A DNA stretch of 64,000 nucleotides from an uncultured delta proteobacterium (GCA_963789265.1 CAWBKB010000005.1:192001-256000); one strand, 5' to 3'. Positions 16,945 through 29,164 are shown, numbered from the stretch's first letter. Numbers and translations are program-made. The notes: generated by a model from the letters alone, not told the origin.

Positions 16945-19345
16945 TCACAATTCCTCTGATTCACTCCCGTATGCCCCATGTACAAGCTGTATTCCGACAG
17001 GCCTGCCACCCTTATGGATGGCCTCCCGGCCGAGTGCTGCATTTACCCTGAGATCCAGTACATGACGATCGAGAGAAGGGATCCGGGCTGAATCGGGCCG
17101 AGTCGCTTTGAGACACTCTAACAGCGTTTCCTGGAACTCCTTATCGGAAAGCTCCGGAATTGTTTCCAGCAATCTCATGGCCTCTTCAGATCTTTCCATG
17201 TTGAGAAGGCAGCGAACTCTTTTCAGCATGGAGGACGGTACTTCCTCTGAAATTGCCTGGTAATATTCCATAGCCCATGCGTACTTCCCTGCGTTGACCA
17301 GTGTGTCCGCCAATGCGTTCAGCGGGGTGGGCTTGCCTTCCAGCAAACCCGCCAAACTGCGCACGTTGTCGCGTTTATCCAATTTTGCCATCATGTGTAC
17401 CAGCATTAGAAAATGACCTGGAGTCCTCAGCAGAGCACCGGGGTCAGCATCACGCAAAGCCAGGTAGTAAAGGACCTCGTTTTGTTCTCGTAGCAAATCG
17501 AGATCGGGAAATGGATACGTGTTGGATATTCGGAGGTGCTTCACTTCATCGATGGTGCTTGCATTCACCGATATCAATACCTTGTGGATCTTTGCATGCA
17601 CTTGGATTTCTTTTCCCCGCAACTCTTCTTCAACGTAGTCATCGGGAAAAACAAAGTCGAAGTCAATCTCGTTTCCCTCTTTGGCGCCGACAAAACCCGC
17701 TTCAAAAGTTGGGAGCAAAAGCCCTCGTCCCAGCAACACATCCCAGTACTTTCCTGATATTCCTGTAAAGGGAACCCCTTGGATCCAACTCCGTGAGTCG
17801 AATATGATTCGGTCTGTGGGACCGGCCGAGGTTCCGCTCTCTCTAAAAAATCCCAAGGAGGAAATCAGCTCCTTCACCGCTGACTCTTCCCCATTAAGTG
17901 TTGCGCGGTATCCTTCCAAGAATTGTTCTAGCAGCGAAAACTCCTCAATGGCGCTGGCGGCAAGGGCCCCATACGCATGAAACATCGACTCATCCGATAG
18001 ATCCTCCCGATTCGTCAGCAAGAAATCCAGGATCTCAAATAAGCGCTGTTTGTAATAGACGTCTCTTTCCATCTGTTCATTGGCAAGGGCCCAAAGGTTG
18101 CGCACCTTTTTGATGTCCGCCTTTGACATTTGTTCAGTTTCGTACCGGTCCCCAACAGAGAGGTAAGTGGGTCTGTATCCGGGATGGGGCCTGATGCCGA
18201 AGCGTTTCGGGCCGTGTTGGTACACCGATCCAAAGTAAAGCTGCATTTGTTGTGAGCCTGAGTTCGATTGAATAGGGATTTCCAGTGAGCGTAGGAAATT
18301 CATGGTCTCACGCGCGTCATCGACAGTTTCACCCGGAAGCCCGAAAATTGAGAAAAGTTCCGCTTCCATACCCAGTGAATGAACAACCTTGATATTTTCT
18401 TCAAGCTGCCTCAAGAATATCCCCTTGTTGGTATTCTTGAGCACGCCGGGGCTTCCGGATTCGAGGCCGAACGCCACCGTGTCGGCTCCGGCTTGCGCCA
18501 GCTTCTTCAGCAGGGAAGGATCCACGAGATCGGCCCTGGTTTGGAGCCAGAACGGAGTGGTAATCTCCCTCCTGATTTTCTCTTCGAGTAGTCTCTCCGT
18601 TCTGTCCCTGTTCTTCGGTGAAATTGGGGTCGGCAAACCAGAACCGTTTTATTCCCTTTCCTGCGAGGAACTCCATTTCAGCTATTGTTCTTTCAACAGA
18701 ATGGCAGCGTACTTTACCTCCGCAAATGCGGGGAGTTATGCAGAACCAGCAAACATGTCTGCACCCCCTGGAGGAAAGGAGAATTGCCGTATTCTTTCCT
18801 TCCAGATTAAGCAGATTCGCCAAATAAGGGGAAGGATAGAAATCTAGATCTTCAGGCCCTTCCGGCACCGGACCGCTCTCGATGATGCGTCCGTCGCTCC
18901 TGCACGTAATTCCCGGGATCTCTTCAAGGTTCCCGCCCGCCTGAAGGGCCCGGCCTATTGCGGGCAGTATCACTTCGCCCTCTCCCCTTACGAGGGCATC
19001 CACGTCGCAGAGAGCTTCCAGGGCACCTGAAGGCATGGCCGATACCTGCGGACCGCCTAGAACCACCTGTATTTTGGGGTGCCTTGACTTGATGTACCGG
19101 CAGAGAAAGCGAATCCGGCTCATGGTGCTCTGATAGGCCGTGAACCCTACAACCCATGGGTCGATACGGCGAATCCACTTTTCAAGGTTCCTAAGGCTCA
19201 AGGGCCTGTCCCTAAGGTCATCGAGGATTATGCCGTCGAATCCGCCGGCCTTGAGCGCCGCAAGGATATAGCCCGTGGAGATAGGGATACTCTCTGACGA
19301 TTCATAGCCCACATCATGGTTCACATTGATAAAGAGAAAAGCCAC
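16945..19345 (-). CDS. B12-binding radical SAM protein with C-terminal trigger-factor FKBP-like domain and TPR-like helices; +1 frameshift near 18614
   Basis: Cobalamin-binding region (VGFTAY, VVLGGPQ, VRGEGE), SRGCRHVCWFC, FADPNFT and FGLESGS, followed by LLPTFEAGFVGAKEG..FDFVFPDDYVEEELRGKEI. Confidence 0.82.
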
Positions 19346-19461: not shown

Positions 19462-19749
19462 ATGAAAAAGATCAAGAGTCCGTGGTATGGAGCTTTGTGG
19501 ACACTGGTTTGGACGGCAGCCCTTATCTGGTTCCTTGCCTCAGGCATGTTCAATACAAGGGAATGCGTCGGGTTGGTCCTGATATGGTTGGTTCTTGTTG
19601 GTTTTACCGGCTATTTGATTCTGCGCCACCTGAAACATAGAGCGGGGCACGCGGTGGAGCCGCCATCACGTGTCGTTGCTCTCCCTGCACTGAACGCGCC
19701 CTGCCCATGCGGCTCCGGCAAAAAATACAAGCGCTGTTGCGGAGCCTGA
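19462..19749 (+). CDS. Small two-TM membrane protein with C-terminal SEC-C Zn-binding motif
   Basis: Two hydrophobic segments followed by NAPCPCGSGKKYKRCCG. Confidence 0.8.
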   Translation: MKKIKSPWYGALWTLVWTAALIWFLASGMFNTRECVGLVLIWLVLVGFTGYLILRHLKHRAGHAVEPPSRVVALPALNAPCPCGSGKKYKRCCGA

Positions 19750-19987: not shown

Positions 19988-20557
19988 CTATCTCGTCAAC
20001 CTGTACGTGCTTTCTATCGTGTTAATTACTTGTTGCCGCGCCTGATCCATCCCCCAACCACTATCCAGCAGACAGGTTAAATATAGCCTGGCGGTCATTT
20101 GCATCTCAGGCTCGGTCCGAGCCCTAGCAATCATCATGGGATACCGTGAGCAGTCAGGCCGCTGCTGCACTTGAGGTGGCGGGGGAGGCTGATAAGCCGG
20201 TTCTGGATGCCATTGCTGGAGGACCCGGCTGCTGGTAATGCTCGTGAGACCGCGACGCCCGTTTGCGCGAGGGAGCTGGAGCAGCATTTTCGGTACATAG
20301 GGCTTCACCGATCCGTAACGAAGGCTGTTGCTATTCTGCTGCTGGTACCGTCGCGAGTGCCGACGGTGTCGGGAATCAAGCGGTTGGGTCGAACCGGTGT
20401 CGAGGTGGTTCCCGCGGTTGTCGAATTCAGGGGCTTTGGGCACGCTGTATGGAAAATCCTGGGCCACGACACTCTGAGTGACCACAGTTCCTACCAGGAC
20501 CATAGCCACCGATAATACAATAACCATACCGAATCTCATCATAACAACGATCTCCAT
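19988..20557 (-). CDS. Secreted hypothetical protein, Q/P-rich with a C-terminal two-Cys helical domain
   Basis: Signal peptide (..SVVA|QDF). The middle part may carry compensating frameshifts. Confidence 0.6.
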   Translation of the reverse strand: MEIVVMMRFGMVIVLSVAMVLVGTVVTQSVVAQDFPYSVPKAPEFDNRGNHLDTGSTQPLDSRHRRHSRRYQQQNSNSLRYGSVKPYVPKMLLQLPRANGRRGLTSITSSRVLQQWHPEPAYQPPPPPQVQQRPDCSRYPMMIARARTEPEMQMTARLYLTCLLDSGWGMDQARQQVINTIESTYRLTR

Positions 20558-20761: not shown

Positions 20762-22540
20762 CTATCGGCCACCCGAACCGAACTTGTGAATCTTGTTTAG
20801 CAGACCCTGTCTCGACAGCCCCAACTGCTTCGCCGCGAGACTTCTGTTGCCGGCGCAGCTTTCGAGCGCTTCCTGAAGCATGGATTTCTCCATCCTTTCA
20901 GTAGCTTCTTTTAGAGTGAGAGGATTGGAAGTCGCCTTATCTTCAATCATTTTTTCAACCGAATTTCTTATACGAGGCGAAAGACAGCGAACCGACAAGT
21001 TTCCTCCGTCGCCCGCAAGTATATGGGCACGTTCGATCTCATTTTCCAATTCTCTCACGTTCCCCGGCCAGGGATAACGAACCAACAATTCAAGGACGGT
21101 CGGATCTAGACCGCGGACGGGTTTGCCGGTCAGCACAGTCAATTTGTCCAGAAAATGTAGAGCCAGCAAAGGGATATCATCGGCACGTTCGCGCAAAGGC
21201 GGGATCACAATGGGAAATACATTCACTCTGTAAAACAAGTCTTCGCGAAACATGCCTTGCTGGATTCGTTCGTTCAGGTCTCGGTTAGTTGCGGCAATAA
21301 GGCGTACATCAACAATCTGGGACCTGTTTTCACCTACAGGCTTTATTTCCCCGGACTGAATAGCGCGAAGCAGCTTCACCTGCATGGAGGGGGAGGTCGC
21401 TTCGATTTCATCCAGGAAAAGTGTCCCGCGGTGGGCCGCCTTGAACACCCCTACATGATCGGCTACCGCGCCGGTGAAAGCGCCTTTCCTGTGCCCGAAC
21501 AGTTCACTCTCAATCAGCTCCGACGGGATCGCGGCGCAGTTCAAGCTTACGAGTGATTCATTTACTCTCGGGCTAAGCCGGTGGATCGCTCGGGCCACCA
21601 GCTCTTTTCCTGTTCCGGATTCACCCTGTATCAGGACCGTAGTTTCAGTGGGCGCAACCTTACGGATTAGAGATCGAACTTCCTGCATGCCTGCGGCGCT
21701 TCCGATAATCTCTTCCAGCAAGTCACTGTGGTGAAGAGCCTGCTTCAGACCGACGTTTTCTTGCCTCAGTAAAGAAGCACTCTGTCTGAGATGATCCCAT
21801 TCCAGCGCATGCTCCATTGATCTAGCAGCCTGGGATGCGAGAATTTCAAGTATTTCCAAATCAATAGAAGTGAAGACTCCGGCACGCTTATTAAGCACCT
21901 GGAATACCCCTATTACGGGTCCCCCTGGGACGCGCAACGGCACACAAAGGAGGTTCTTTGTTCTGAACCCTGTCTGAGGATCAACCGCCTTGTTAAAGCG
22001 AGGGTCTTTGTACGTGTCGACGATGTTCAGCGATTCGCCGTGCGTAAACACCCACCCGGCAATACCGGACTGCCAAGGTATACGGATCTGATCGTGCTTT
22101 AGCCCCACCCCGAGGTGCGAATACAGTTCCTTGGTTTGGTGATCCGCCAGAAATATGGTCGCGCGTTCCGCATTCATGACGGAAGGGGCTTCCCTTATGA
22201 GAAGCTCAATCAGTGAACTCATATTCGTTTCGCTGCTAATCAAAATCCCCATCTTGAACAGCAGCGATATCCGTTCCAGATAAGAGCCGAGAGGTTTGGC
22301 TGGTCTCGTGAAGCGCTTCGATCCCTCTTCCATTCCCAGGGCTTCTTTGAGTAAGGTTATGTCAACATGAATGGTGATCGCTTGGACGAGTTCCTCCACC
22401 GAGATCTTGCCTTTCGACAGGAGAATCTCTTGAGGGGACCTTCCTGTCTCCTTTGCCTCATTAATGGCCTTCGCATAATCGTCTTTGCCTATTCTTCCCG
22501 TTTCCAGGAGGAGTCGGCCGATGGAATGGAGATCAATCAC
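20762..22540 (-). CDS. Sigma-54 enhancer-binding protein: MshEN-like + GAF + AAA+ + Fis HTH
   Basis: GESGTGKE, ESELFGHRKGAFTGA, LFLDEI, FREDLFYR, WPGNVRELEN and HTH AAKQLGLSRQGL. GAF region: GIAGWVF..DPRFNKAVD.QTGFRTKNLLCVPL..QVLNK. Probable start GTG at 22540 (GGAGAG RBS); the alternative is ATG at 22564. Confidence 0.92.
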   Translation of the reverse strand: MIDLHSIGRLLLETGRIGKDDYAKAINEAKETGRSPQEILLSKGKISVEELVQAITIHVDITLLKEALGMEEGSKRFTRPAKPLGSYLERISLLFKMGILISSETNMSSLIELLIREAPSVMNAERATIFLADHQTKELYSHLGVGLKHDQIRIPWQSGIAGWVFTHGESLNIVDTYKDPRFNKAVDPQTGFRTKNLLCVPLRVPGGPVIGVFQVLNKRAGVFTSIDLEILEILASQAARSMEHALEWDHLRQSASLLRQENVGLKQALHHSDLLEEIIGSAAGMQEVRSLIRKVAPTETTVLIQGESGTGKELVARAIHRLSPRVNESLVSLNCAAIPSELIESELFGHRKGAFTGAVADHVGVFKAAHRGTLFLDEIEATSPSMQVKLLRAIQSGEIKPVGENRSQIVDVRLIAATNRDLNERIQQGMFREDLFYRVNVFPIVIPPLRERADDIPLLALHFLDKLTVLTGKPVRGLDPTVLELLVRYPWPGNVRELENEIERAHILAGDGGNLSVRCLSPRIRNSVEKMIEDKATSNPLTLKEATERMEKSMLQEALESCAGNRSLAAKQLGLSRQGLLNKIHKFGSGGR

Positions 22541-25500
22541 GAATACTCTCCCCGGTTTTGCCATACAGAGCTATCTCGCCGGTCTGACCGTGAATAATCA
22601 TTTTACTCCCCACCACCACGTCATGTTCGTTGAATCGCACTATTTCGGGCTTGCCCGAAAACTTGGCTATCTGCCGAACCTGACCCACATAAACCTTGTC
22701 CAAGGATTTGGAGATATCCGCCGCGTGCGCTCCTCTGCCACCTAGATGGCTTATGAGAGCGGTAGCCACCGGAAGCGAAAAGATCTCTTCCATTATCTCC
22801 TCGGGAATAGGATCGTTAACCACAAAAATGAATCCGTCCAGTTTATCATGTTCCGGGAGACGTTCGTTCATGGCATCTATAATGGACTGGGCCTTACTGA
22901 TGTGCTTGAAAGGGGCAATTTGATTCCGATCGGTAACCATGATCCCTCTGAAAATTTTGCCGGAAACTCCCGTACCCTGCGCAATCACATCGTAGCCCGA
23001 CGAACTGAGAGGCGGGACTCTCTCTTTGCGCTCTCTATCCTTGCGAATCTGCAGAATGAAAACTTTCCCTTTTTCTATGGTGTACTCAAGACGAGTGTCA
23101 AAATGCAGCCGCTCCGCGGTCCGGAAGAGTACGGAATGAAGTTGCTTCCAAGCGTCAGGCATTTGAGAGGCGAGTGATTCCTGGGCCTTCCAGAGGTCGT
23201 ACACGGGAATCGTTGCCACCTTGCCGTCTACAACGTCGGTCCCCTGATCGCCTTGTGCGAAATCACCCCGAAGATCCATAGTGAAGGGATTGTAAGACAC
23301 AACACCCGTTCCCGAGGAATTGAGTTCCATGTTCCCGTAGACCATACCCTGAACGATGACCGGAGTGCGCCAATTCCCATGGATACCCGCCGCTTCTCTG
23401 TATTTGCTCGCTGCTCTTCCGTCATAGGAATGCAGCACGACGATGGCACAATGGATGAGAATGTCCAGGAATTGTCCCTTGTCAAGCAGCTCCACCACTT
23501 TGGGGGCCAACTCCGCAACTCGCGCCTTGTAATCGAATGCAAGACTCTTCATCTGCTCAGCGCTCATGTGGGCTTTGCGCCTCACTTTAAAACGTTCTTT
23601 GCGCTCATCGATGATTCCCTGAAACTCGTCTCTCTCCAAACCAAATACTGACTGGCTGAATTCCTGCAAGAAACGCCGATAACAATCGTATGCGAACCAA
23701 GGCCCCACTTTGGCAGCCAAAACTTCGGCCGTTTCATCGTTGATCCCAACATTGGTAATAGTTGTCATCATACCGGGCATGCTGACACGGGCCCCGGACC
23801 TCACTGAAAAGAGTGCGGGATTGGACGGATCACCCAAAGATCGACCCCAGAGCTGCCCCAGCTTGGCCACAGCGCGGCCCAACCCTTGTCTGAAGTCGGG
23901 GTTTGTCAACATTTCTTTCGGTTCCAGCAGGGATTGGTCTGTGGTGATGACAAAGTAAGGGGGGGTGTTTTCCGCGAATCGCAGCAAGGACGCCTTCAAT
24001 CCTATCCTGCAAGGTGAAATGTCTTTGGGGTCCGGAAAGTAAAAAGGTACCGAACGTAAAGGCCCCGGCCCTTTGCGAACGACCCTCTTACTGGACTCAG
24101 CAAGGCGCTGATTGAGAAAAAGCTCTATCTTATCTATGAAGGTTTCCAGGACCCTCAGGTTTCCATCTCGTGCCTGAAGATCGGATACATAGAGTGTTTT
24201 CAGATAGTTCTTGAAGAAATCGGTGTCGGGGACCTCTTTCAGGGTGGTCAAGTTCTTGAGCTTGCGCGGCAGTTTCTCCATCGGGCAGAAGGAAAGGAAA
24301 TTGTCAAAAGGCTCCTCGAACGAGCTTCGATAACTGACATATATATCATCGACCTCTTTCTTGATGATGGTCACCAGATCTCGCACTTTGTCCAGAGTCA
24401 GGCCGAGATCGCCGGCGCGGCGCAAATCGCGACCGCCTTGTTCCAAATAGAAACTCGAATGCCCGTTTACGGAGACTCCGCGCACCAGGCAATCGAGAAA
24501 GACGAGCGCATCCGCAAGATTCTCCAATGTAATTGTATCAAAATGAGTATTGTTTACGCTCGTGGCAAGGGTCTCCTGGAGTCCTTCAAGCTGGAGATCT
24601 TTATTGAAAGCCTCGAAACGTTCCTCAATGTATGTGGCTTTTTGCGCGTACGCATGTCCTGCCTTTTTCGCTCGCAAGATAATAGGCGTGCCGGGTCGCT
24701 CCCTGTTTATGAGCTCCATTTCCCGGGCCGCGTCTTCAGTCCCCTCCGTTAGGGTCACCGGCGCTGAAAGAGGTTCTGAAATATCGGGAGTGAGGAATTT
24801 TTGCTTGGTCTCTCCCCGCTCCAGAATGATTTGATCGAGACGGTTGAGGCCTTCCTCAGCCGTGGCGCCGGAGGCGGATTGGAGGACTATAAAATACTTC
24901 GCATACAAACCCTTGGCCAGCTCAATGACGTCCAGGACCATACGCCGGGAGAATTCCGGCCACGTCGGGTCGGAACGGTAGGGCGCAGTATCGAGGAATG
25001 CAAGCTGCATCATGCCTTCTTTTTCGGAAGGGTCTATTTTCAGGTCATCGAAGATGCGGCGGCACAGATCTCGCATCCCCTGCTCTTCCGGCATCGAGCA
25101 CCACTTGTTCATCGGCAGGTACGGCATTGATTCGGAGGGCATCCATTCCGCGATGGCTTCCGGTCGTCCCTCAGAAAAATATTTGACTATTCCCCGGCAA
25201 AAATAGAAATTTTCGATGCTTCCGCGCCAATGTATATCCCCGCGAAGCTTTCCCAGAAAGTTGCCGATGGGCTTTACACCTCGATTTGCCAACTCTTTCG
25301 CAAGCCCCGCTGCCGTGAGCCTCAGAGTGTCGAGCGGCCCTATATCCTTAAAAGAGTATGGAATCGCCTTTATAAGCGTCCGGATAGGGAAGTGCATAAC
25401 AGACGAGTTGGCCTGTAATAGCCTGGAGATCCAATATTGGATGAGGTCCTCATCGCACAGGCGCGTTTGGCCGATTTCGATCTGAATAACAAGATATGGT

Positions 25501-27017
25501 ACGAGGCGATGCATGATCCGCGGATTCGAGGCAATGATGGAGATCAAACACTTTATGTGTTGTGCGTGAGCCCGGTTTGCCCCTGATTCCTCGGCCAAGA
25601 CGAGGGGCTCGCCCGTATCGTCATCCTCGATGGTATATTTCTTGTCCAAAGGCTGAATTATCGGCCGTTTCACAAAATGGTCGATAAGCTCTTGGGCCAT
25701 AAGGAAATACCCGGATTTACCGAGCGTGACACCCAGTGATTCCAGCGCGTTCAGCGAGGATATCACTTCGCCGGTGTCTTTTGACGAATACGCGCGCTCC
25801 AGAAAGACATTGGCAAATGTATTTACAAGGTTCCTGGATGCTTGCTTTCTGGTCTTCTCCAGTCTGACTACTATGCGGCAAAGCCCGTCGATGAACAGCT
25901 CTTTGACTTCCGGTTTATCCACTGCAATGATCTGAGCAGCCAAAATCTCTGCAAAGGCCTCTTGCAAGTCCATCGGAAGCTCATCAATCATTTCCTGGAA
26001 AGCCGAAAGAATTGCTCTCCATTCTTCCGCCAGATTCTTGATGAATGAAATGCCCTTTGTAATCTCGCCTTCGTCTATTTGACCCCGTCCATCCAATGCG
26101 CTTTGATAGGTTTGCCTGCGTTTCTCGATTTCTTCGGCCGAGTGGAGGTTGATCCTTTCCAGGATCTCTTTCCGGAAGCGTTCCTTGGATGCAAAATTCT
26201 CGACCTCCAAAGCGCTTTCCAACCTTTTCACGAGACCTTCGGGACAAGCGCGTATTTCTCCCAGAGCAGTGATCAATGCCTGAACCGCCAATCTGTCCAC
26301 GTGCGAAGTCAGAGCGAATTTGATCTCATCCGACCGCTTCTTCAGGGCTGACCCGATCTCGGAAACTTCCAGAACGCGTCGTTCAAAAGAGTTCAAGGAG
26401 GTGCGAAACGGCTCTTGAGCCAAGAAATCGATGACGGATTCCACGAACGGCTGGTACTGCTGAAATGTCTTATCATTGGCAGTATTCAGAATGCCGGCCA
26501 CCAGACGTGACAAGACGTGTTCTCCTTCAGACCGGGCAGCCGCATCAAACGGCTGACGCACCGCTGCAAACAAATAGCTGAAGAGGATCTCCATTACAGA
26601 GGGAAGGTGGTCGCCCAGCGACTCGTCATCTCTATCCAGCGAATATCGGGAGATCAATCGGACTACTTCCAACCAGTTGGGGATTTCGTACAGCGCTGAT
26701 ATGAGGTTTTCACGGATGGCAAGCCGCCGGCCTTCAAAGGAAGTGAGATAGACAAGCTCTTCCAAAGATTCACGCGAAAACCGGCTGAAGAGCGTAAGTC
26801 GCGAATCATATTGCCGCAAGGCGACCAGATAAGGGGAAGCCTCCTTACCCGTACGGTCGAGGATCATTAAGACTGTAGGGAGAGCCTCAACCGCGAGCGT
26901 CGTTTGATCCCCGAACTTGATGCCGGAAAGATTGATGACCTCGGCCATTCCGGCGATCTGGTACGGATTGAGCGGTTCGTGATCGCTGATCTGCCGTATG
27001 AGATTCCTGACTTCCAC
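22533..27017 (-). CDS. Atypical PPDK-family dikinase: ~1000-aa unknown N-terminal region + ATP-grasp + phospho-His domain, no pyruvate/PEP barrel
   Basis: Motifs SVRSGARVSMPGMM, FAYDCYRRF, VQGMVYGN..SGTGV, QGTDVVDG, EYTIEKGKVFILQIR and GGRGAHAA. The ORF ends right after IIHGQTGEI. Confidence 0.8.
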   Translation of the reverse strand: MEVRNLIRQISDHEPLNPYQIAGMAEVINLSGIKFGDQTTLAVEALPTVLMILDRTGKEASPYLVALRQYDSRLTLFSRFSRESLEELVYLTSFEGRRLAIRENLISALYEIPNWLEVVRLISRYSLDRDDESLGDHLPSVMEILFSYLFAAVRQPFDAAARSEGEHVLSRLVAGILNTANDKTFQQYQPFVESVIDFLAQEPFRTSLNSFERRVLEVSEIGSALKKRSDEIKFALTSHVDRLAVQALITALGEIRACPEGLVKRLESALEVENFASKERFRKEILERINLHSAEEIEKRRQTYQSALDGRGQIDEGEITKGISFIKNLAEEWRAILSAFQEMIDELPMDLQEAFAEILAAQIIAVDKPEVKELFIDGLCRIVVRLEKTRKQASRNLVNTFANVFLERAYSSKDTGEVISSLNALESLGVTLGKSGYFLMAQELIDHFVKRPIIQPLDKKYTIEDDDTGEPLVLAEESGANRAHAQHIKCLISIIASNPRIMHRLVPYLVIQIEIGQTRLCDEDLIQYWISRLLQANSSVMHFPIRTLIKAIPYSFKDIGPLDTLRLTAAGLAKELANRGVKPIGNFLGKLRGDIHWRGSIENFYFCRGIVKYFSEGRPEAIAEWMPSESMPYLPMNKWCSMPEEQGMRDLCRRIFDDLKIDPSEKEGMMQLAFLDTAPYRSDPTWPEFSRRMVLDVIELAKGLYAKYFIVLQSASGATAEEGLNRLDQIILERGETKQKFLTPDISEPLSAPVTLTEGTEDAAREMELINRERPGTPIILRAKKAGHAYAQKATYIEERFEAFNKDLQLEGLQETLATSVNNTHFDTITLENLADALVFLDCLVRGVSVNGHSSFYLEQGGRDLRRAGDLGLTLDKVRDLVTIIKKEVDDIYVSYRSSFEEPFDNFLSFCPMEKLPRKLKNLTTLKEVPDTDFFKNYLKTLYVSDLQARDGNLRVLETFIDKIELFLNQRLAESSKRVVRKGPGPLRSVPFYFPDPKDISPCRIGLKASLLRFAENTPPYFVITTDQSLLEPKEMLTNPDFRQGLGRAVAKLGQLWGRSLGDPSNPALFSVRSGARVSMPGMMTTITNVGINDETAEVLAAKVGPWFAYDCYRRFLQEFSQSVFGLERDEFQGIIDERKERFKVRRKAHMSAEQMKSLAFDYKARVAELAPKVVELLDKGQFLDILIHCAIVVLHSYDGRAASKYREAAGIHGNWRTPVIVQGMVYGNMELNSSGTGVVSYNPFTMDLRGDFAQGDQGTDVVDGKVATIPVYDLWKAQESLASQMPDAWKQLHSVLFRTAERLHFDTRLEYTIEKGKVFILQIRKDRERKERVPPLSSSGYDVIAQGTGVSGKIFRGIMVTDRNQIAPFKHISKAQSIIDAMNERLPEHDKLDGFIFVVNDPIPEEIMEEIFSLPVATALISHLGGRGAHAADISKSLDKVYVGQVRQIAKFSGKPEIVRFNEHDVVVGSKMIIHGQTGEIALYGKTGESIRD

Positions 27018-27203
27018 GGTGCTGTCCAGCGTGGTGAATTTTCGAATAACAAGCTTAAATCATTGCGATCACTATCGCAAGAAGTACGGATGGTCAGTAT
27101 GTGAAAGGCTTCACAAAGAAACTTTTATTGCGAGGGTCCTACTCCCATAGGCGATAACTGAAGTGCATTTCGTTACCTCTGAAGAGGTCCCAGGGCCATC
27201 AAA

Positions 27204-27291
27204 GTCCCCCTTTTATAAAGGGGGATTTAGGGGGATTTTCAATGGGTTATCTCAAAATCCCCCCTAGCCCCTCTTTATAAAAGGGGGGAAC
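27204..27291. repeat. REP-like inverted repeat TCCCCCTTTTATAAAGGGGGATTTAGGGGGATTTT...AAAATCCCCCCTAGCCCCTCTTTATAAAAGGGGGGAA
   Basis: Long imperfect inverted repeat with internal hairpins. Confidence 0.75.
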
Positions 27292-27312
27292 CCCGCGTCC
27301 CGCGGGGTTGAG

Positions 27313-28848
27313 TTAGCGCCTATGGGGTACTACTCCTGGTTCGGATCTTGTCTCCTGATATAAGAAACACAATTCTCGGCCCAAACTTGAGGTGAGTTTG
27401 ATTCTGTCGTAATTTATGGCCACATTGTTAAAATATTGGAGGATGAGCGAATCTCCCAATGAGGAGGATGGCTTGATCCCAACGAAGAAAAATCCGAGCT
27501 GTTCAAATTCACGGGTCATGTAATAGGTCAAAGGGTCTTCCAGGCTGCAATATAGCTGTATGACCTCAATATGCTGGAGGCAAAGCTCTTTGAGCCTTGC
27601 TTTCACTTCCAATAAGACGTCGGACCCGTACTCTTCAACGTCAATCCACCCGAATCCTGTAGGGCCGTAGTGAACTGTATTCAATCTTGAATGAGGCCCC
27701 GAAAATCGTGGCCCCGGGACGGACGGGGCTTCAAAGTCAGGCTCGACACCGATGTTGATATACAGCTTGCGAATGATTTCTTTATGATGCTCGGGCGCAT
27801 ATATGGGAAATAATTCAAGCTTTGTCATATATCTAAAACAAATCAGGTAAGTTTCACGCTGGGGAAGCGTTTCGGTAAGGCCCTTGAACGACAACGTCGC
27901 AGGGCCGAAACCAACAAGCAATCCGCAATCGTTAAAACCAAACCGATGAATGGCCTGCTGGGAATAAGTGTGGTTGGTTGCGGCCACGACGTAGAGCGCT
28001 CGCGTATTTTCGGATTTTGCTTTTGCGATAAGGTACTCTGTGAGCCGAGTGAGGCACCCCTGCCACCGAAACTCAGGTTTCACAACGGCAAAGCCAAGTT
28101 CTGCCACGTTTGAGCTGGAATCCCACCTGAGCAGCGCACAATGGCCTATTATTTCGCCATCTCGAGTGACTGCCACCACTGATAAAATTTCGCCTTTTTC
28201 GTTGAGTTCGACAATCCTATCCGGATAGTAAATCTGACGATAAGCAAAAGAGTATCCGTAAGCCTTGTAGAAGCACTTGGAAACTTCTATCGCTTCGCGC
28301 GGCTGCATCGGCCGGACTTCAAATTCTACCGTATTCGGCGGGAAAACACGGACTGACGCGGGCCCTTCGTAAGGTTCCAACTCGCAGACATTGTAATAGT
28401 CTTTGATGGTGCCTGTTTGTAGGTAATTGATCAGGTGCGTTTCTTTTCCTTCCAGACCCAGGTTGTGAAAAGAAACTTCATCCATGGCTTGCGTACCCGG
28501 AGAGAGAACACATTGGGGCCTGAACATGAGTTTGGCGTTCGATTCACACTCGGGCGGCACAATCTCGGCAGACTGAAGCGGGAGGCCCTTGTCTTTGATG
28601 ACGATTTTGAGCCCCATGAGGACTCTTTCGCAACTTATATCAAGAGTGGCTCGCTCATTCGGTTCGAATGCCTTCTCGATGACTTTTGAGACTACATCCT
28701 CGACTCCACTAGCAATATCTCGGCAGGTTGTTTCGTCGAAACCGAAACTTTGAGCCACATTTCGAATGTAAGCGCCGACTACACCAAGATAGGAAGCATC
28801 GGTGGGGATAGTAAGCTTTGAGTATTGGCATGGTTCTGTAGTGCTCAT
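27313..28848 (-). CDS. RsbW-like HATPase domain fused to GNAT N-acetyltransferase
   Basis: N-terminus has LTIPTDASYLGVV, VIEKAF, IVIKDKGLP and AMDEVSF. The GNAT part has IIGHCAL, AELGFAVVKPEFRWQG and HTYSQQ. The true C-terminus may be CSYIRRQDPNQE* (stop at 27330) if one T near 27366 is an error. Confidence 0.78.
   Translation of the reverse strand: MSTTEPCQYSKLTIPTDASYLGVVGAYIRNVAQSFGFDETTCRDIASGVEDVVSKVIEKAFEPNERATLDISCERVLMGLKIVIKDKGLPLQSAEIVPPECESNAKLMFRPQCVLSPGTQAMDEVSFHNLGLEGKETHLINYLQTGTIKDYYNVCELEPYEGPASVRVFPPNTVEFEVRPMQPREAIEVSKCFYKAYGYSFAYRQIYYPDRIVELNEKGEILSVVAVTRDGEIIGHCALLRWDSSSNVAELGFAVVKPEFRWQGCLTRLTEYLIAKAKSENTRALYVVAATNHTYSQQAIHRFGFNDCGLLVGFGPATLSFKGLTETLPQRETYLICFRYMTKLELFPIYAPEHHKEIIRKLYINIGVEPDFEAPSVPGPRFSGPHSRLNTVHYGPTGFGWIDVEEYGSDVLLEVKARLKELCLQHIEVIQLYCSLEDPLTYYMTREFEQLGFFFVGIKPSSSLGDSLILQYFNNVAINYDRIKLTSSLGRELCFLYQETRSEPGVVPHRR

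Positions 28849-29092: not shown

Positions 29093-29164
<72 letters not shown>

Follow-up and report, generated by a model that had tools for sequence, protein, structure and literature searches.

A lineage-specific giant dikinase without the PEP/pyruvate barrel and its conserved sigma-54 activator partner

What might a dikinase do when it retains the domains for phosphorylating a histidine but no barrel for phosphoenolpyruvate (PEP) or pyruvate, and when its gene is followed directly by that of a sigma-54 activator? The question is raised by a 64,000-nucleotide (nt) stretch from an uncultured delta proteobacterium (GCA_963789265.1 CAWBKB010000005.1:192001-256000), hereafter the window, whose minus strand encodes a 1,494-residue relative of pyruvate, phosphate dikinase (PPDK) and, overlapping its 3' end, a 600-residue activator. 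A first-pass annotation, made from the sequence alone, had put this pair forward as an undescribed phosphotransfer signalling system. What is established here is that the dikinase represents a new lineage-specific variant of a widespread and uncharacterised family of barrel-less dikinases, with a conserved activator partner; that much of the proposal stands, while a signalling system is not established. Our favoured reading, held at a probability of roughly 40%, is that the giant dikinase-like protein serves as the signal-input partner of the co-translated activator. The near-constant linkage in one bacterial family suggests recruitment, as a signalling partner, of an enzyme whose usual gene neighbours belong to sugar metabolism.

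A giant dikinase-like protein that ends at its swivel domain

The dikinase-like gene occupies 22533..27017 (minus strand) and encodes 1,494 amino acids (aa) from a GTG start, according to the list of open reading frames (ORFs) and the translation. All motifs quoted in the first-pass annotation are present and in the order given there, at the following computed positions: SVRSGARVSMPGMM at residues 1071-1084, SGTGV at 1235-1239, QGTDVVDG at 1258-1265, EYTIEKGKVFILQIR at 1311-1325 and GGRGAHAA at 1426-1433. The first four lie in a PPDK-type ATP-grasp domain spanning approximately residues 986-1330 (23028..24062, minus strand). This assignment draws on Pfam family PF01326 (E 2.5e-12), on TIGR01828, of which positions 32-337 of 865 match residues 1015-1328, on eleven PPDK sequences in the PDB (best 1ggo, E 7.3e-44) and on a model of residues 480-1494 (pLDDT 85.2, pTM 0.82) that Foldseek aligned to PPDK 1kbl over 550 columns (E 1.1e-24, rmsd 4.3).

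The last motif lies in a divergent swivel phosphohistidine domain (residues 1331-1494; 22536..23027, minus strand) and contains His1431, whose codon is at 22725-22727. Here PF00391 scores below its cut-off (17.9 versus 23.1 bits, E 0.0023), and the domain was recognised by alignment to a relative that does bear PF00391 (P0209), whose GGQTSHAA histidine aligns with His1431, and by the fold of its model, which matches the phosphoryl-carrier domain of PPDK, 2fm4 (TM-score 0.75 normalised to the target, 150 columns). Compared with P0209, the swivel domain contains a 17-aa insertion, with an inserted, conserved and lineage-specific helix at about residues 1373-1386, and its motif reads GAH in this branch where the wide-family relative has TSH. 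Among the close homologues described below, which we call the core family, conservation of the swivel domain (0.89-0.91) exceeds that of the ATP-grasp. Judged by sequence, the equipment for ATP-dependent histidine phosphorylation, a PPDK-type ATP-grasp and a swivel domain with His1431 at the catalytic position, is intact.

No Pfam match to the PEP/pyruvate barrel (PF02896) was found anywhere in the protein, which ends at the swivel domain, so the barrel-less architecture described in the first pass is borne out. Full-length homologues, about 80 in number and 1246-1538 aa long, are 55-93% identical to the protein across 83% or more of the length and come from sources labelled Desulfomonilaceae, Desulfomonile tiedjei metagenome-assembled genomes (MAGs) or Thermodesulfobacteriota. 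Because these homologues are full-length and of equal length at such identities, the protein is no artefact, and truncation by assembly error is indeed as unlikely as had been claimed. The candidate explanation of an ordinary PPDK generated by mis-assembly or truncation is countered by the identical length and architecture of the same homologues. The broader notion of an ordinary PPDK, whether mis-assembled, truncated or completed by a separately encoded barrel, can draw on source annotations of homologues as 'pyruvate, orthophosphate dikinase'. We nevertheless find it barely credible: there is no PF02896, the TIGR01828 score is 209.9 bits against a cut-off of 843.45, the residues ahead of the ATP-grasp are modelled as all-helical rather than as a barrel, and the genome has its own canonical, barrel-bearing PPDK outside the window (G000:C4:79803-82537), though in three reading frames. 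The earlier statement that this is not a metabolic PPDK is upheld by the missing barrel, that score and the separate canonical gene. The three frames in which the canonical gene was matched indicate that it is frameshifted or carries assembly errors. PADLOC returned no match for the dikinase. Publicly listed sequencing runs comprise five DNA metagenome runs from two studies, with no RNA run listed.

The 985 residues ahead of these domains correspond to the roughly 1,000 aa of unrecognised, helical-looking sequence noted earlier, and Pfam matched no family in them. Their model (67 sequences; pLDDT 85.6, pTM 0.80) is almost all helical, alpha-solenoid-like over about residues 80-450 and helical-bundle-like over 830-975. 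Foldseek returned karyopherin, CAND1 and designed-repeat proteins, all at TM-scores of at most 0.20; VIA-align returned designed helical repeats and four-helix bundles at Z of at most 11.0, which is under the level meaningful for helical proteins; and the best ESM Atlas matches (0.82 and 0.77) were below the 0.9 level. Since the model is helical and its only structural matches are to generic helical repeats and bundles, the region is not a barrel, which answers the question of a PEP/pyruvate barrel raised in the first pass.

Two parts can be told apart. Residues 1-479 (25581..27017, minus strand) form a lineage-specific helical-repeat region, alpha-solenoid-like and modelled entirely as helices, which hhalign related to the N-terminus of the wide family described below at a weak 33.6% probability (E 4.4e-4). 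Residues 480-985 (24063..25580, minus strand) form an N-domain that, from its invariant columns and phmmer/HMMER matches, is common to that family and is a candidate acceptor or ligand site. Across 83 aligned sequences, H484, D522, P553, G560, R566, R592, H596, K707, Y708 and G852 are invariant in the N-domain, as are K1008, E1311, Q1323 and R1325 in the ATP-grasp and GG1426-1427 in the swivel domain, while R1073 and H1431 are at least 90% conserved. Conservation within the core family peaks in the block at 551-600 (0.96), yet the pLDDT of this block is low (54-67), as expected if the model covers a loop that would become ordered upon binding. The conserved polar residues of the putative pocket argue for small-molecule chemistry.

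A sigma-54 activator is the only constant neighbour

The activator gene occupies 20762..22564 (minus strand) and encodes 600 aa from an ATG start, again from the ORF list and translation. Its domain layout (Pfam, NCBIfam) consists of a GSPII/MshEN-like N-domain (residues 1-97), GAF (113-250), AAA+ (286-452) and HTH_8 (556-595). The AAA+ match to PF00158 (E 1e-68), with GAFTGA at 361-366, GESGTGKE, LFLDEIE and the AAA lid all present, combines with the C-terminal HTH_8 to mark the protein as a sigma-54 activator. It scores below the cut-off for NifA (TIGR01817; 363.8 versus 528.85 bits), and in PADLOC it matches only RtcR-type AAA+ models. Pfam gave no match to a receiver domain (PF00072) in the activator, the N-terminal part of which is a small helical domain plus the GAF, in agreement with the earlier description. 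The 'MshEN' label that came with that description is plausible but weakly supported: PDB sequence matches to the N-domain are PilF GSPII (E 1.4e-5), the MshE N-domain (0.091) and PilB (0.1), while Pfam gave no match to it even at E 10 and ESM Atlas no informative one. The RLG that opens the c-di-GMP-binding motif of MshEN domains is SIG or absent here.

The 3' end of the dikinase gene and the start of the activator overlap at 22533..22564 (minus strand), by 32 nt if the activator begins at its ATG or by 8 nt from the GTG inside CGTGATTGA, the latter being the start of most activator orthologues, (M/V)ID.... Either way, the overlap of stop and start reported in the first pass is real. The two genes form a conserved unit that is probably translationally coupled.

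To follow the pair across relatives we used 24 genomes of the window's taxonomic family (Desulfomonilaceae, per source labels) and 16 of the sister family. A full-length or frame-broken dikinase occurs in 21 of the 24, the exceptions being G003, G011 and G016 (86%, 82% and 99% complete, respectively). All 16 sister-family genomes gave an ATP-grasp match only, in frames of about 900 aa that are canonical PPDK, and in a 401-genome sample of the phylum core-family matches with E = 0 were confined to the window's family. In 19 of 20 related loci, whose dikinases span 55-93% identity, the next gene downstream, in the same orientation, is the activator, which either overlaps the dikinase or sits within about 80 nt of it; in one of the 19 (L021) it is cut by the contig end after 91 aa. 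It is the sole constant neighbour across the 20 core-family loci, all others being variable. The conserved linkage that the first pass had proposed looking for is therefore found.

The activator itself is, in the sequences searched, as lineage-restricted as the dikinase. About 96 activator clusters share at least 55% identity over the N-domain and GAF and have the same source labels as the dikinase; beyond them, similarity is to the GAF alone, in cyclases and histidine kinases. For 25 of 80 dikinase clusters the longest contig is equal in length to that of an activator cluster, taken as a proxy for location on one contig. No ortholog of the activator's N-domain plus GAF was found in G003 or G016, both of which lack the dikinase. 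No dikinase-activator fusion appeared among the 120 matches listed, in a searched range of 821-2615 aa.

A widespread barrel-less family beside GAPDH genes

Residues 480-1484 are collinear with a protein of a much wider family (BLASTP, 27% identity, E 5e-72). A HMMER scan with residues 1-985 returned 92 representatives at E of at most 0.001, and the matches beyond core-family fragments are proteins of about 1350-1540 aa that align to residues ~480-900 at 23-30% identity. PPDK_N and PEP-utilizers are carried by 23 of 30 relatives scanned with Pfam, and PF02896 by none of the 30. Members such as ABK44898 of Magnetococcus marinus and those of cable bacteria and Thermosulfurimonas dismutans are annotated 'PEP/pyruvate-binding domain-containing protein', ABK44898 also as 'pyruvate phosphate dikinase'. 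In a scan of a collection of species-representative genomes, at least 598 matched stretches encode relatives (598 of 600), and the N-domain was matched in 117 of the 401 genomes of the phylum sample. Literature searches found no paper on this family of about 1,400 aa.

The wide family keeps different company. Of 20 of its loci, each from a different genome of the phylum, 17 contain gap or gapX, 15 gapX and 10 pgk, where gapX encodes a divergent, long GAPDH (416-443 aa) with the catalytic SCTT kept; a sigma-54 AAA+ gene is present at one and adjacent at none. The best 80 of the at least 598 collection loci, all from Thermodesulfobacteriota including cable bacteria and Thermosulfurimonas, have a canonical gap upstream in 54 cases; gapX occurs in 17 and pgk in 11, and none of the 80 has a sigma-54 AAA+ gene. 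From the family's place in gap/gapX/pgk clusters it follows that its ancestral role was tied to lower glycolysis. None of gap, gapX and pgk was found among the conserved neighbours of the window and its 20 related loci, and the window's genome has a single canonical GAPDH match, located elsewhere, and no gapX.

In a FastTree phylogeny of the ATP-grasp and swivel domains, the barrel-less proteins form one clade apart from PPDK (support 100), within which the core family is monophyletic on a stem of 1.52 substitutions per site; its pairing there with an enolase fusion is subject to a long-branch warning. The gap-linked proteins share with the window's dikinase the N-domain invariants, the ATP-grasp residues and the swivel histidine, but differ from it in several respects: the first ~480 residues are barely alignable, the window's protein has GAH in place of TSH as well as the extra helix, gap, gapX or pgk neighbours are replaced by a downstream sigma-54 activator, and its stem branch is very long. 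On these alignments the window's protein is a very divergent, lineage-restricted branch of the widespread uncharacterised family, one that has exchanged its GAPDH neighbourhood for the activator. The branch is in effect a natural experiment, in which the same catalytic core has been cut from GAPDH and joined to a transcription activator.

Three of the 30 scanned relatives (P0177, P0180 and P0154) have an N-terminal hemerythrin domain, and another relative (P0096) is the one fused to enolase. At L044:10154-12598, gapX is apparently fused to PGK in an 814-aa ORF.

Comparison with known dikinases and sensor-activator pairs

PPDK (EC 2.7.9.1; TIGR01828; PDB 1KBL, 1DIK) matches the window's protein in its ATP-grasp and swivel phosphohistidine domains, in both sequence and fold; the latter differs in having no TIM barrel, in its 985-aa N-terminal extension and in scoring far below the equivalog cut-off. 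A picture is emerging of barrel-less PPDK derivatives, among them rifampin phosphotransferase (RPH), aromatic dikinases and VadK, as kinases that act on new acceptors. The known barrel-less relatives returned by a literature search are RPH, HpeHI, MarK, GWD and VadK. VadK (Rv1127c) of Mycobacterium tuberculosis is a truncated barrel-less PPDK with ATP-grasp and catalytic histidine kept, reported in a preprint to autophosphorylate on histidine and to regulate through protein partners (10.1101/2025.10.30.685616), and so offers a recent precedent for a regulatory role. VadK has about 490 aa, no extra domain and a gene set among methylcitrate-cycle genes, whereas the window's protein has 1,494 aa, of which 985 are N-terminal, and a gene set beside a transcription activator. 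Nor does the latter belong to the truncated PPDK/VadK group (NF004531), which is defined as two-domain proteins of about 500 aa and which it matches at 162 against 456 bits.

RPH and the phenylphosphate synthase/HpeHI-type dikinases are reported to combine the ATP-grasp and swivel histidine with a different acceptor domain (PMC4844700, PMC12167813). Foldseek matched RPH only weakly (E 8.5e-5 to 5.9e-3, TMq 0.09-0.19; best the ATP-binding-domain entry 5hv6, E 8.5e-5) and HpeI 9goj at E 8.2e-3. In RPH the substrate (rifampin-binding) domain stands between ATP-grasp and swivel, while here the order is N-domain, ATP-grasp, swivel; the domain put forward as the acceptor site sits at the N-terminus, is all-helical and proved unrelated in the searches done.

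For the pair as a whole, a parallel is NifL-NifA, in which the gene for a nucleotide-binding sensor is coupled to that of a downstream receiver-less GAF-AAA+-HTH activator and control is by protein contact. The likeness lies in the coupled upstream gene and the receiver-less, GAF-containing sigma-54 activator, with contact in our pair putative. The differences are that the dikinase has no PAS or GHKL domain, that the activator scores below the NifA cut-off and that there is no nif context. Literature searches, which did not extend to supplements, found no report of a barrel-less dikinase with a sigma-54 activator.

A signal-input partner or an enzyme?

The order sensor-then-activator is known from ntrBC as well as nifLA, and the gene order and coupling seen here fit that pattern. 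The long stem branch and the remodelled swivel domain point to a changed function. Together with the linkage described above, these observations lead us to favour the dikinase-like protein as the input partner of the activator. In this scheme ATP would supply a phosphoryl group to His1431, presumably from its beta position, the one used by PPDK, PEP synthase and rifampin phosphotransferase, and the swivel domain would carry the group to the conserved N-domain pocket. What the pocket binds would be a small acceptor or effector; the context of the family makes a three-carbon phospho-acid from lower glycolysis the probable candidate. The state of phosphorylation or occupancy could then be passed to the activator by direct contact, most likely between the GSPII-like N-domain of the activator and either the remodelled, highly conserved swivel domain or N-terminal portions of the dikinase, much as the anti-activator NifL acts on the activator NifA or as VadK binds metabolic partners. 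In turn, the activator would switch sigma-54 promoters elsewhere in the genome. A prediction of the complex from dikinase residues 1-480, the swivel domain (1330-1494) and activator residues 1-280 gave, with no controls folded, a median of 0.28 against a mark of 0.32 (runs 0.40, 0.28 and 0.17), values that count neither for nor against binding.

A more specific version, in which a PPDK-derived swivelling-histidine enzyme has become a dedicated sensor whose ATP- and metabolite-dependent His1431 state is read directly by the activator, is in our estimate doubtful. If true, it would add a third phosphohistidine route to sigma-54 control, besides His-Asp two-component systems and the PTS-PRD route of the phosphotransferase system (PTS), and would link enhancer-dependent transcription to carbon status at the triose-phosphate node. 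If the pair signals at all, it would be a new input class for sigma-54 activators, and a read-out of the regulon would offer a handle on the ligand or acceptor of the whole family.

Several points count against the pair acting as signalling partners. The support is wholly in silico, with contact putative. G007 has a dikinase without an adjacent activator, so the dikinase can exist alone; in G012 the adjacent activator has 402 aa, with N-domain, AAA+ and HTH but no GAF, so the sensory logic is not uniform. In neither genome was an N-domain-plus-GAF ortholog found elsewhere, and the best matches there, as in G003 and G016, are to the GAF only, at 33-35% identity. Because the genomes counted are kin, the phyletic counts lack independence. 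With 39 sigma-54-type AAA+ matches in the genome, activator genes are common neighbours in this organism, and scans of the window, the related loci, the G000 gap gene and the orthologues of a downstream neighbour turned up neither a target promoter nor a regulon. In the alignment of the activator's N-domain, no His, Asp or Cys is conspicuous as an invariant residue, H14 and H66 being variable. The invariant pocket residues, being common to the gap-linked family, are as compatible with a plain enzyme as with a sensor.

That last point leads to a possible but unlikely arrangement in which the protein is a metabolic dikinase acting on a small molecule and the activator's GAF senses its product or substrate, without direct protein signalling. 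The ATP-grasp residues, His1431 and the polar residues of the N-domain are kept in both branches, the GAF is a small-molecule-binding domain whose nearest non-orthologous relatives are in cyclases and histidine kinases, and the lone dikinase of G007 would suit an enzyme. Speaking against it, the activator of G012 lost the GAF and kept both the N-domain and the overlap of its start with the dikinase stop; the lineage has no gapX partner and, in the window's genome, only the single canonical GAPDH match; and the stem branch and remodelled swivel suggest a changed function.

The promoter scans bear on a further alternative, that an ordinary sigma-54 regulator merely shares an operon with a divergent metabolic dikinase, or controls it, neither protein acting on the other. 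Scanning for the sigma-54 consensus TGGCAC-N5-TTGC gave 52 matches in the window against 59.5 expected. No sigma-54 promoter was found upstream of the window's dikinase gene, so that simple self-regulation is not evident, and in the window and 19 related loci no site ahead of the operon held a conserved position. The G000 gap gene was preceded by no site with intact GG/GC, and upstream of 11 orthologues of a 189-aa protein often encoded downstream of the pair (below) the best sites had 2-6 mismatches, equal to background. A good sigma-54-type site, TGGCAGATTGCTTGC, does occur at L017:5967-5981, 40 nt upstream of the dikinase start; it was not seen in this position in the other loci. That site and the abundance of AAA+ matches in the genome are what co-expression alone would have in its favour. 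We consider it quite unlikely, given that the two genes stay adjacent, by overlap or short gap, in 19 of 20 loci even at 55% identity whereas every other neighbour varies, that a search of two related genomes lacking the dikinase gave no activator ortholog, and that no conserved sigma-54 site precedes the operon.

Direct phosphotransfer, with His1431~P donating its phosphoryl group to a residue of the activator in a receiver-less phosphorelay, is the original proposal in its strongest form. A swivel histidine domain next to an activator without a receiver invites the idea, and PTS-type phosphohistidine control is known for LevR-type sigma-54 activators, which provides a precedent. The autophosphorylation reported for VadK points the same way. 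We judge such transfer improbable: the activator N-domain offers no invariant acceptor residue, the protein has neither a PRD nor a receiver domain, and the conserved N-domain pocket suggests that the acceptor would be bound within the dikinase itself.

Flanking genes and other features

Downstream of the pair, at 19988..20557 (minus strand), lies the gene for the 189-aa protein, predicted to be secreted, with a signal-peptide-like start, a conserved C-terminal stretch of about 55 aa and no Pfam family. It is a frequent neighbour, being downstream in 11 of 21 loci (window included), among them the activator-less G007. Further along, a B12-binding radical SAM gene (16945-19345, minus strand) is split into two overlapping ORFs of 314 and 563 aa; its orthologue is a single 799-aa ORF in L013 and L019, so that either the gene is frameshifted in the window's genome or the assembly is at fault.

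On the other side, close upstream of the dikinase, 27313-28848 (minus strand) encodes 511 aa comprising a GNAT acetyltransferase domain and, at the N-terminus, a weak RsbW-like HATPase_c_2 match. Only the four same-genus loci (L013, L014, L031 and L032) have this gene upstream. An inverted repeat, TTGCGAT-N4-ATCGCAA, lies at 27063-27080, some 60 nt ahead of the dikinase start; in L013, the closest relative, this place is taken by TTGCGGT-N4-ACCGCAA, with both arms changed, and the repeat was not found in more distant loci. The stretches 27200-27320 and about 29094-29164 contain hairpins upstream of the dikinase that are GC-rich with an AT core (CCCCCTTTATAAAAGGGGG, AACCCCGCGGGACGCGGGGTT) and a long near-perfect inverted repeat between the GNAT and alanine dehydrogenase genes. 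On the plus strand, 19462-19749 encodes a 95-aa hydrophobic protein ending in CPCGSGKKYKRCCG, which we take to be of the SEC-C metal-binding type.

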